From Salinispira sp. (GTDB lineage: Bacteria; Spirochaetota; Spirochaetia; DSM-27196; Salinispiraceae), in the NCBI GenBank assembly GCA_965602015.1, contig OZ271918.1, positions 224,001 to 288,000 on the forward strand: a stretch of 64,000 nucleotides of DNA. Direction: 5' to 3'. The translations under genes were made by a program, and so were the position numbers. The notes beneath the pieces are model-generated. The model made no database searches. It was not told the origin of the DNA and saw only the letters and a program-made list of their open reading frames with translations. Below are positions 12,893-14,416 of the stretch, one piece after another. Each line of letters opens with the position of its first letter. The first letter of the stretch is position 1.

Positions 12893-12976
12893 ACGGGTGT
12901 GTATCCTGAAGTGAATTGGGTATGATTTTATATCAGAAAATCACCACCGCTGTCAATTTAATATGAAGTGATGGTA

Positions 12977-12994
12977 TGAAAGCGGTGCCTCCCC
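12977..12994 (+). repeat. Left sub-terminal inverted repeat of IS copy 1
   Basis: tgaaagcggtgcctcccc, exact reverse complement of 14252-14269. Confidence 0.95.
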
Positions 12995-13045: not shown

Positions 13046-14098
13046 ATGAGTAGTATTATTATATCCCTCGACAGCCATAAACGGTATACCGTGGCTGCAA
13101 TTGAGGACGAAAAAGGAAGGAAATCCTCACAGCGCATAGAACATTCTCACGGGTGTATTCGTGATTTTCTCCAACAATTTGAGCCGGGACAGGAAGTCGC
13201 ACTTGAAACAATCGGAAGTTGGTACTGGATTGTGGATGAGATTGAGGAGGCCGGCATGAACCCCTTGCTGGTACATGCCGGTAAGTCAAAATTGATGATG
13301 GCCATGTTTAACAAAACTGACAAACTCGATGCTGAAGGTCTCAATAAACTTCAAAAAGCAGGCACACTGCCTACTGTGTGGATTCCACCAGGAGAATTGC
13401 GTGATAAACGAGAACTCTATCGAACCCGGATGCAGTTCGTTCAGGAGTTGATACGTGAAAAGAACCAAATTCATGCCGGGTTCGAGAAATATGGGTTTCG
13501 ATTCAATGATGTGAGCGATCTGTTCGGAAAAGCAGGTACAGAAGCCATGAAGAAGGTAATGCCAAAACTCCCCGAGCATACCCGCACCATGATGAAACTC
13601 AAGCTCGATAATCTCGCGTTTATTAAGCAATCTATCACCGACTGCGAACAACGAATGCATGAAGCGTTTGATGAAAATGCTGAAATGAAGTTGGTGAAAT
13701 CCATTCCCGGGATCGGATTTATTCTCAGCGCAGTCATTGTGCATGAAATTGGAGACATACATCGCTTTAAGACCGCTGAACATTTTGCATCATACTGTGG
13801 TACAACGCCGCGCGTTCACTCGAGCGGAGGTAAAACTCATTATGGTCGAACATCGAAAGCATGTAATCGATACTTGAAGTGGGCACTTACTGAAGCAGCT
13901 AATGTAACCTGTCTTAATCAAAGAAATTGGGCGAACCGACATACGGTAAAACTCTACAAGAGAGTTCGTACTAAACGTAATCATAAGGTTGCAATAATCG
14001 CCGTGGCACGGCACTTAGCAGAAGCAATATTTTGGATATTGCAGAAAGAACAGCATTACAAAGATCCTGCATTAGCGGGTTTGTCCAGACAGGGGTAA
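13046..14098 (+). CDS. IS110-family DEDD recombinase/transposase
   Basis: RuvC-like DEDD residues D9, E54, D92, D95 (SLDSHK, ALETIG, KTDKLDA); C-terminal IPGIG...YCGTTP...HSSGG with predicted catalytic Ser; GGAGGAGG ribosome-binding site. Confidence 0.96.
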   Translation: MSSIIISLDSHKRYTVAAIEDEKGRKSSQRIEHSHGCIRDFLQQFEPGQEVALETIGSWYWIVDEIEEAGMNPLLVHAGKSKLMMAMFNKTDKLDAEGLNKLQKAGTLPTVWIPPGELRDKRELYRTRMQFVQELIREKNQIHAGFEKYGFRFNDVSDLFGKAGTEAMKKVMPKLPEHTRTMMKLKLDNLAFIKQSITDCEQRMHEAFDENAEMKLVKSIPGIGFILSAVIVHEIGDIHRFKTAEHFASYCGTTPRVHSSGGKTHYGRTSKACNRYLKWALTEAANVTCLNQRNWANRHTVKLYKRVRTKRNHKVAIIAVARHLAEAIFWILQKEQHYKDPALAGLSRQG

Positions 14099-14251
14099 GC
14101 GCGTTTTTGGGGCTACAGCGCGAATACGAGGCTGTGCAAAGTGATTGCGACACCCCTGGAAGGACATTTTCATGCCACGTGGATGGCGGAGATATGACTC
14201 GGACAAAACCGATTTGCAGAATTTTTGTAATAGAACATTGAAAACTCTTGC
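14082..14251 (+). ncRNA. Putative bridge/seek RNA of IS copy 1 (ends approximate)
   Basis: Stems 14082-86/14162-66, 14090-96/14152-58, 14114-19/14131-36; loop segments match the target (14103-14113, 14139-14143) and the donor junction (14168-14177, 14190-14197). Confidence 0.75.
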
Positions 14252-14269
14252 GGGGAGGCACCGCTTTCA
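14252..14269 (-). repeat. Right sub-terminal inverted repeat of IS copy 1
   Basis: ggggaggcaccgctttca, followed by gata and then the target TG. Confidence 0.95.
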
Positions 14270-14273
14270 GATA

Positions 14274-14416
14274 TGCCCCCAAAACAGCTGATATTGTGCG
14301 CTAAGTATCAATCCTGGCTGGAAATGCAAATGAAGTGACAAAAAACCTTGAGATTAGTCCCTTACTTCTTGTTCTTAAGGCATTTGCATCAATTCCATCA
14401 GCTGTTTTGGGGGCAC
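14274..14416. repeat. MITE/REP-like element with ~20-bp terminal inverted repeats; left tip interrupted by IS copy 1
   Basis: tgcccccaaaacagctgat (14274-14292) and atcagctgttttgggggcac (14397-14416); internal complementary segments tgcaaatg/catttgca. Confidence 0.8.

Follow-up and report, generated by a model that had tools for sequence, protein, structure and literature searches.

Does the RNA predicted in the right end of this insertion sequence recognise the element's own joined ends as well as its target and, if so, with which bases? The window, that is the whole 64,000-nt stretch of Salinispira sp. DNA analysed here (coordinates are positions in it, 1 being its first letter), carries a 1.3-kb element of the IS1111 group of the IS110 family, present in 10 genomic copies, 9 intact and 1 interrupted. 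From the letters alone, the first-pass annotation had read a donor-binding loop made of two segments, TTTCATGCCA at 14168-14177 and AGATATGA at 14190-14197. Both are present as it gave them, and so are the matches it described, nine of ten positions in reverse complement for the first and eight of eight in identity across the predicted junction for the second. When 14099-14251 was subjected to 3000 dinucleotide shuffles, a core-spanning junction 8-mer arose by chance in 1.4%, a reverse-complement match of at least 9/10 in 2.4%, and any junction 8-mer jointly with such a match in 0.5%. These frequencies are modest, so that the single sequence is only suggestive and it is covariation among homologues that decides. 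We establish below the ends, the core and the target of the element, a conserved fold, and the covariation.

The element, its ends and its target

The landmarks of the element are as follows.

12969..12970, + strand: left TG core dinucleotide, in the start ...AG-TG-ATGGTA of 10/10 copies
12971..12976, + strand: left-end terminus ATGGTA, the right donor half in the circle, constant in the 10 copies
12977..12994, + strand: left subterminal inverted repeat, 18 bp, 100% complementary to 14252-14269
13046..14098, + strand: IS110-family DEDD recombinase, 350 aa (PF01548, PF02371; NF033542 at 226.8 bits, cut-off 140)
14252..14269, + strand: right subterminal inverted repeat, 18 bp, pairing perfectly with the left repeat
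14270..14275, + strand: right-end terminus GATA (left donor half) and TG core, in the end TTTCA-GATA-TG of 10/10 copies
14274..14415, no strand: target, a 142-bp miniature element with the 19-bp terminal repeats of a second, 1.25-kb IS (inverted repeat I2)

The sequence shared by the 10 copies runs from TG-ATGGTA-IRL at 12969 to IRR-GATA-TG at 14275; the ends assumed by the first-pass annotation are thus common to all copies, and the junction it deduced from them is right. The recombinase has the DEDD RuvC-like domain and the Tnp domain of the IS110 family. Its residues D9, E54, D92 and D95 are invariant, and S260 nearly so, in an alignment of 44 homologues, and by analogy with the family these five are presumably catalytic. 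The traits of the IS1111 group are found as well: a perfect 18-bp repeat lying 6 and 4 bases inside the cores, a long right and a short left end (177 noncoding bases follow the stop codon and 77 precede the start codon), and insertion at a fixed place, with AG-TG in 10/10 left flanks and CCCC[C/G]AAAAC in 8/10 right flanks.

No circle joint was found in the contigs from four runs of one sample or in the assembly, and rare forms drop from contigs. Across the predicted junction (14248-14275 joined to 12971-12972), TATGAT with TTGCGG 18 bases upstream, noticed by eye, forms a possible junction promoter; a scan of the linear element gave no promoter at the RNA 5′ end (4 sites vs 2.4 expected). Two copies deserve mention. 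The one at G000:C1:1706981-1709280 has another element of about 1.3 kb inserted after base 62 and lacks bases 63-381. At G000:C1:3399415-3402551 (L009, L006), a 254-base flank and the element are duplicated in tandem, and the right end of the first copy is fused exactly at TG to a partner site unlike the left end or the normal target, which may be a single event of off-target recombination at the core.

The second IS, whose termini serve as target, has 12 near-identical transposase copies in the genome. Its 377-aa protein (L204:155-1285) has no Pfam match above cut-off, and its NCBIfam IS1/ISL3 matches are weak and below cut-off. In the genome 120 of the terminal repeats are full and 7 are occupied by the element, with spacings of 141-145 bp and 1247-1248 bp; the miniature elements of 141-145 bp number over 20, and a few palindromes of 42-47 bp occur too. 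Left flanks end in AG in 9/9 independent insertions vs 64/113 empty sites (Fisher p 0.011), a preference that agrees with the left target guide, AAAG-TG. This guide belongs to a hairpin in the right end of the element:

14090..14158, + strand: target-binding hairpin; stem 14090-96/14152-58, 90.6% paired, 8/9 pairs with double-sided changes
14103..14114, + strand: right target guide, complementary to CCCC[C/G]AAAAC, as found in 8/10 right flanks
14138..14143, + strand: left target guide AAAG-TG; 10/10 left flanks end AG-TG

Among the 54 homologues with both flanks, the two guides covary with the target as those of a bridge RNA do, the right one at positions 1-6 (z 3.7-8.5) and the left one at four positions (47-52/54). 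At 14113-14116 the right target guide has CU, not CA-U, opposite the core, i.e. one core pair, a variant also seen in several homologues (L141, L154, L184, L186, L197, L198). Most homologues are inserted into a related GC-rich palindromic repeat (..CGCAA/GGAA-TG-ACA..), found in very different phyla (flanks of L048-L061 and L147-L179), from which the target repeat of the Salinispira element differs.

The left donor guide and the fold around it

An alignment of 44 proteins led to 160 fetched loci, and 162 were examined. Both ends were found in 124 of them with a search pattern in which the TG core and the repeat are fixed, the other 38 being left out; the 124 gave 106 distinct loci, of which 104 could be anchored in the RNA alignment. 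The two that were dropped at this step, L081 and L090, failed the RNA anchor, yet each matches its own right end 7/7. The proteins are about 46-55% identical to that of the Salinispira element; a single-protein scan of genome contigs, viral contigs, plasmids and 400 genomes of the phylum yielded no usable close relatives. Since the core was fixed by the search pattern, invariance of TG in the homologue DNA is not evidence. The termini do vary, with right ends GAGA, GATA, TAGA and AAGA and many forms at left-end positions 2-5, and it is this variation that makes a covariation test of the guides possible. In five loci (L113, L156, L158, L174, L202) the left-end spacer from core to repeat is 7 bases instead of 6. 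As a positive control, the target guides covary with the flanks by the same test as the donor guides.

14190..14197, + strand: left donor guide A-GATA-TG(A), reading as the right end followed by the core (covariation, 104 homologues)

For this segment the covariation check that the first-pass annotation had proposed came out clearly in its favour. At 14191 and at 14193 every homologue has the base found in its own right end (104/104 for either position), against shuffled means of 90.9 and 69.3, and the agreement spans the GATA, GAGA, TAGA and AAGA ends. It withstands thinning to below 65% protein identity (50/50 vs a shuffled maximum of 43), and the guide columns score z 8.8 and 7.3 where the neighbouring hairpin columns reach only 3.6. 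On a FastTree tree, the two positions underwent 4 and 3 parsimony changes, equal in DNA and RNA; independent pairs went in the same direction in 2/2 and 3/3 cases, which is too few alone (p 0.5 and 0.25). In six of the 40 dropped loci both the RNA anchor and the right end are clean, and these six agree without exception; L189 is mis-anchored. Position 14197 is A in 85/104 homologues although the facing DNA base is constant, so that the eighth base lies probably outside the guide, whose predicted length is then probably 7 bases (14190-14196). As judged from the homologue sequences, a left donor guide is well supported in this IS1111 clade, and with it the reading of the region as a donor-binding loop. 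A low-depth contig of run X4 departs from the element just behind this guide (14157-14199) and is possibly a chimera.

The first-pass annotation could identify no convincing closing stem. One exists, and the loop it closes contains further conserved features:

14077..14086, + strand: outer closing stem, 5′ arm; pair probability 0.96-0.99 for 8/10 pairs
14201..14210, + strand: outer closing stem, 3′ arm, pairing with 14077-14086
14174..14187, + strand: small hairpin GCCA(C)...(G)AUGGC between the donor guides; 98% of cells paired, 5/5 pairs with double-sided changes
14173, + strand: U where IS621 has its handshake guide, a role presumed from its place; T in 104/104

The outer stem is predicted by the single-sequence fold (z -4.05) and, in 61 homologues, shows double-sided changes at 10/10 pairs with 74.7% of cells paired; it follows that the donor guides sit in a multibranch loop, which has the target hairpin inside it as well. 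In the small hairpin, GCCA pairs with UGGC at 14184-14187 (probability 0.99 for three pairs and 0.79 for the fourth) and thereby occupies four bases of the right guide as first placed. Over the whole structure 88% of cells are paired, vs 72% after shuffling and 32-44% after sliding, in a control that ignores relatedness. A model of the free RNA has the donor guides paired with each other at a probability of about 0.7. Rfam gave 0 matches at E up to 1. The 5′ stems of the RNA overlap the last codons and the stop codon of the transposase (14077-14098), and the C-terminal tail VSSTxG that is conserved in the homologues likely reflects RNA constraint.

The register of the right donor guide

For the other segment the same check failed. 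The first-pass annotation had paired 14168-14177 with TGGTATGAAA, a register that omits the core, has its GCCA held in the RNA hairpin and does not covary with the left ends: at 37/220 matches vs 35 shuffled, z is 0.4-1.3 across thinnings, and 0 columns exceed the shuffle (p 0.12-0.82). The RNA there is near-constant whatever the left end, with G in 103, C in 101 and C in 98 of 104 at 14174-76. The 9/10 match is partly built in, because U-CA-U complements A-TG-A, which stands at the core and again 7 bases further, where the left repeat begins; the suspicion, voiced with the claim itself, that part of the match was chance was correct. The match is likely an accident of register, and the right guide would lie 7 bases off its first placement. 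A search for the best-matching 10-nt right guide anywhere in the noncoding regions of the homologues gave scattered positions and was given up; 10/10 matches occur only in L115 and L190, 55-57 bases downstream of the left guide and adjoining the right repeat.

It is a register anchored on the core that carries the covariation:

14164..14172, + strand: putative right donor guide, core-anchored and loose; CA at 14171-72 opposite TG, 14170-14164 opposite left-end positions 1-7

From 14169 to 14166 the RNA covaries with positions 2-5 of the left end (diagonal z 4.7, 5.8, 5.8, 3.3), scores which relatedness inflates, as a register shifted by +2 also scores z 2.4-4.8 and off-diagonal cells reach z 4.0. 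Watson-Crick matches exceed the shuffled expectation at every level of thinning: 213/316 vs 137 at 90% (z 11.1), 147/220 vs 96 at 80% (z 9.4), 90/136 vs 65 at 70%, and 63/100 vs 45 at 65% (z 5.0). CA stands opposite the core in 95/104 homologues, and anchoring on the core copies the layout of the target loop. This is a loose pairing, reaching about 60% at positions 2-4 and 27/104 at 14165, and the Salinispira element, with 5 Watson-Crick and 2 G-U pairs of 9, belongs to the weakest class (7/104 elements). On the tree, 0/13 contrasts are significant by independent pairs; in summed, non-independent contrasts the RNA changes in the same way as the left end in 12.4, in the opposite way in 1.3 and not at all in 30.4, the values for the register first proposed being 1.6, 1.1 and 41.3. 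Pairing of the right guide does not correlate with repeat length (Spearman rho 0.00). With the guide in the core register, the order of guides is still the one first described, the same as in the target loop: in both loops the top-strand guide lies 5′ of the bottom-strand guide, the order known from the IS1111 group.

Readings of the donor loop and known systems

We favour, at a probability of roughly 0.7, a two-guide donor loop in which the left guide and the core-anchored right guide of a predicted RNA would pair with the joined ends. By analogy with IS621, this RNA would bind the recombinase, the target hairpin would open an AG-TG-CCCC(C/G)AAAAC site, the donor loop would hold the joined ends (or, in excision, the two junctions with the flanks), and strands would be exchanged at the TG core. 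The donor guides would flank the small hairpin, and the order guide, core, U, stem, guide, core would mirror the target loop. Among the observations that count against this reading is one on the handshake base: the partner of U14173 would be the A of the donor itself that adjoins the core, and such a pairing is inhibitory in IS621 (PMC11208158). Position 14173 is T in 104/104 while the target base next to the core varies; it does not follow the target, because the invariant U faces the invariant A of the donor. We infer that U in both loops of most homologues would make the handshake balance neutral.

Survival of the family signal on thinning (z 5.0 at <65% identity) and pairing that does not drop with longer repeats (rho 0.00) both speak against a reduced version, in which this element would use no donor-guide bases but those of the left guide and those that pair with the core; the remainder of the right guide would have decayed, and the left end would be recognised mainly by protein on the 18-bp repeat. 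This version is improbable without being negligible: although both GG positions face a U (G-U wobble) and pairing persists at A14166 and A14164, the Salinispira element forms just 5 of 9 possible Watson-Crick pairs, most tree contrasts show an altered left end with the RNA not following, and in the tandem duplication (L009/L006) a right end is joined at TG to an unrelated site, 254 bases upstream of a left end.

The seekRNA model goes further in that the short target hairpin would work alone, the donor half being a dispensable precursor and the ends being read via the repeats and the flanking target. We consider it slightly less probable again, as a dispensable segment is not expected to track the right end in 104/104 elements and as the donor hairpin and the outer stem are conserved with compensatory changes. 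Experiments on relatives point both ways: in the sections available of PMC11187229, an 82-nt target-only RNA of ISEc11 beat the long RNA (42% vs 15%), and in those of 10.1101/2025.10.25.684509, a target-only RNA is the main species of CazIS110-1 and supports one transfer step, whereas excision and integration needed the full RNA.

The weakest reading, and a very unlikely one, is that in this element 14167/8-14177 slips to pair with TGGTATGAAA, 7 bases off and without the core: its 9/10 Watson-Crick pairs and one G-U are unique among the 104 elements, a rarity that is post hoc since the element was selected for that match, its duplex proxy, computed with RNA parameters, is -12.9 kcal/mol where the core register has -5.7, and an element-specific shift is beyond the reach of covariation, no relative above about 55% identity having usable DNA; but the family shows no covariation there (z 0.4-1.3), 7/10 matches are accounted for by family constants and the GG of the left end, the pairing demands that the GCC/GGC stem (probability 0.99) open, A14177 has its explanation in its partner U14184, and the core is excluded, in contrast to all four guide pairings of IS621 (PMC10849738, in the text available). 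Its bolder form, a second, core-less register that reaches into the inverted repeat and switches with the RNA hairpin, is about as improbable.

The two-guide donor loop bears on a matter that the available text of two papers leaves unsettled, the need for a donor loop in IS1111 elements, since Durrant et al. predicted one and a target-only RNA was enough for ISEc11. A left guide that tracks the end of its own element in 104/104 relatives speaks for donor pairing being under selection in this clade, and the corrected register of the right guide matters for the reprogramming of such elements. Tentatively, and with more doubt than confidence, one may go on to see in this IS1111 clade a true bridge system of two loops whose donor loop is asymmetric, its left guide being strict and its right guide loose, and in which the handshake is not programmable; if true, this would be covariation-level evidence of RNA end recognition despite long inverted repeats.

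The system itself is already known, IS1111 donor loops having been predicted in 2024, and its closing stem is now identified. IS621 likewise has two pseudo-symmetric loops, in each of which left and right guides overlap at a 2-bp core, and an imperfect right donor guide; its core is included in all four pairings, and the right donor guide pairs, discontinuously, with the core and the right donor (PMC11208158; PMC13626964, as far as their available text goes). In contrast to IS621, the RNA here lies in the right end, the guide order is reversed, the core is TG, not CT, and the multibranch loop around the donor guides contains the target hairpin too. The handshake base here is an invariant U that does not track the target, and the next base is in a stem; the handshake is a feature of IS621 and does not define bridge RNAs.

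With ISEc11, ISPa11 and ISKpn4 of the IS1111 group the element shares the DEDD recombinase, the short left and long right ends and the subterminal repeats, and with the seekRNAs (PMC11187229, in part) an RNA downstream of tnp whose top-strand match is 5′ of the bottom-strand match. For the group, the available text of Durrant et al. 2024 (PMC11208160) predicts donor nucleotides in the multi-loop of many orthologues and assigns donor guides by manual inspection of a few elements, that of Siddiquee et al. (PMC11187229) reports transposition of ISEc11 with a target-only RNA and maps only target matches, and part of the table of a 2026 review (PMC13604230) gives only target matches for IS1111 members. 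Here the donor guides are backed by covariation in 104 elements and given a register; earlier, as far as the consulted text tells, by inspection. The register for relatives may already stand in Extended Data Fig. 10c or Supplementary Table 5 of PMC11208160. No mutation or covariation test of an IS1111 donor guide was found in the literature covered, the text of mostly open papers. The repeat of 18 bp compares with the 7-17 bp stated for the group. The IS1111 members IS4321 and IS5075 reportedly (Partridge and Hall 2003) have as their insertion sites the inverted repeats at the termini of another mobile element. The Salinispira element does likewise, its target being a resident 1.25-kb IS and its 142-bp miniatures, not Tn21-family transposons.
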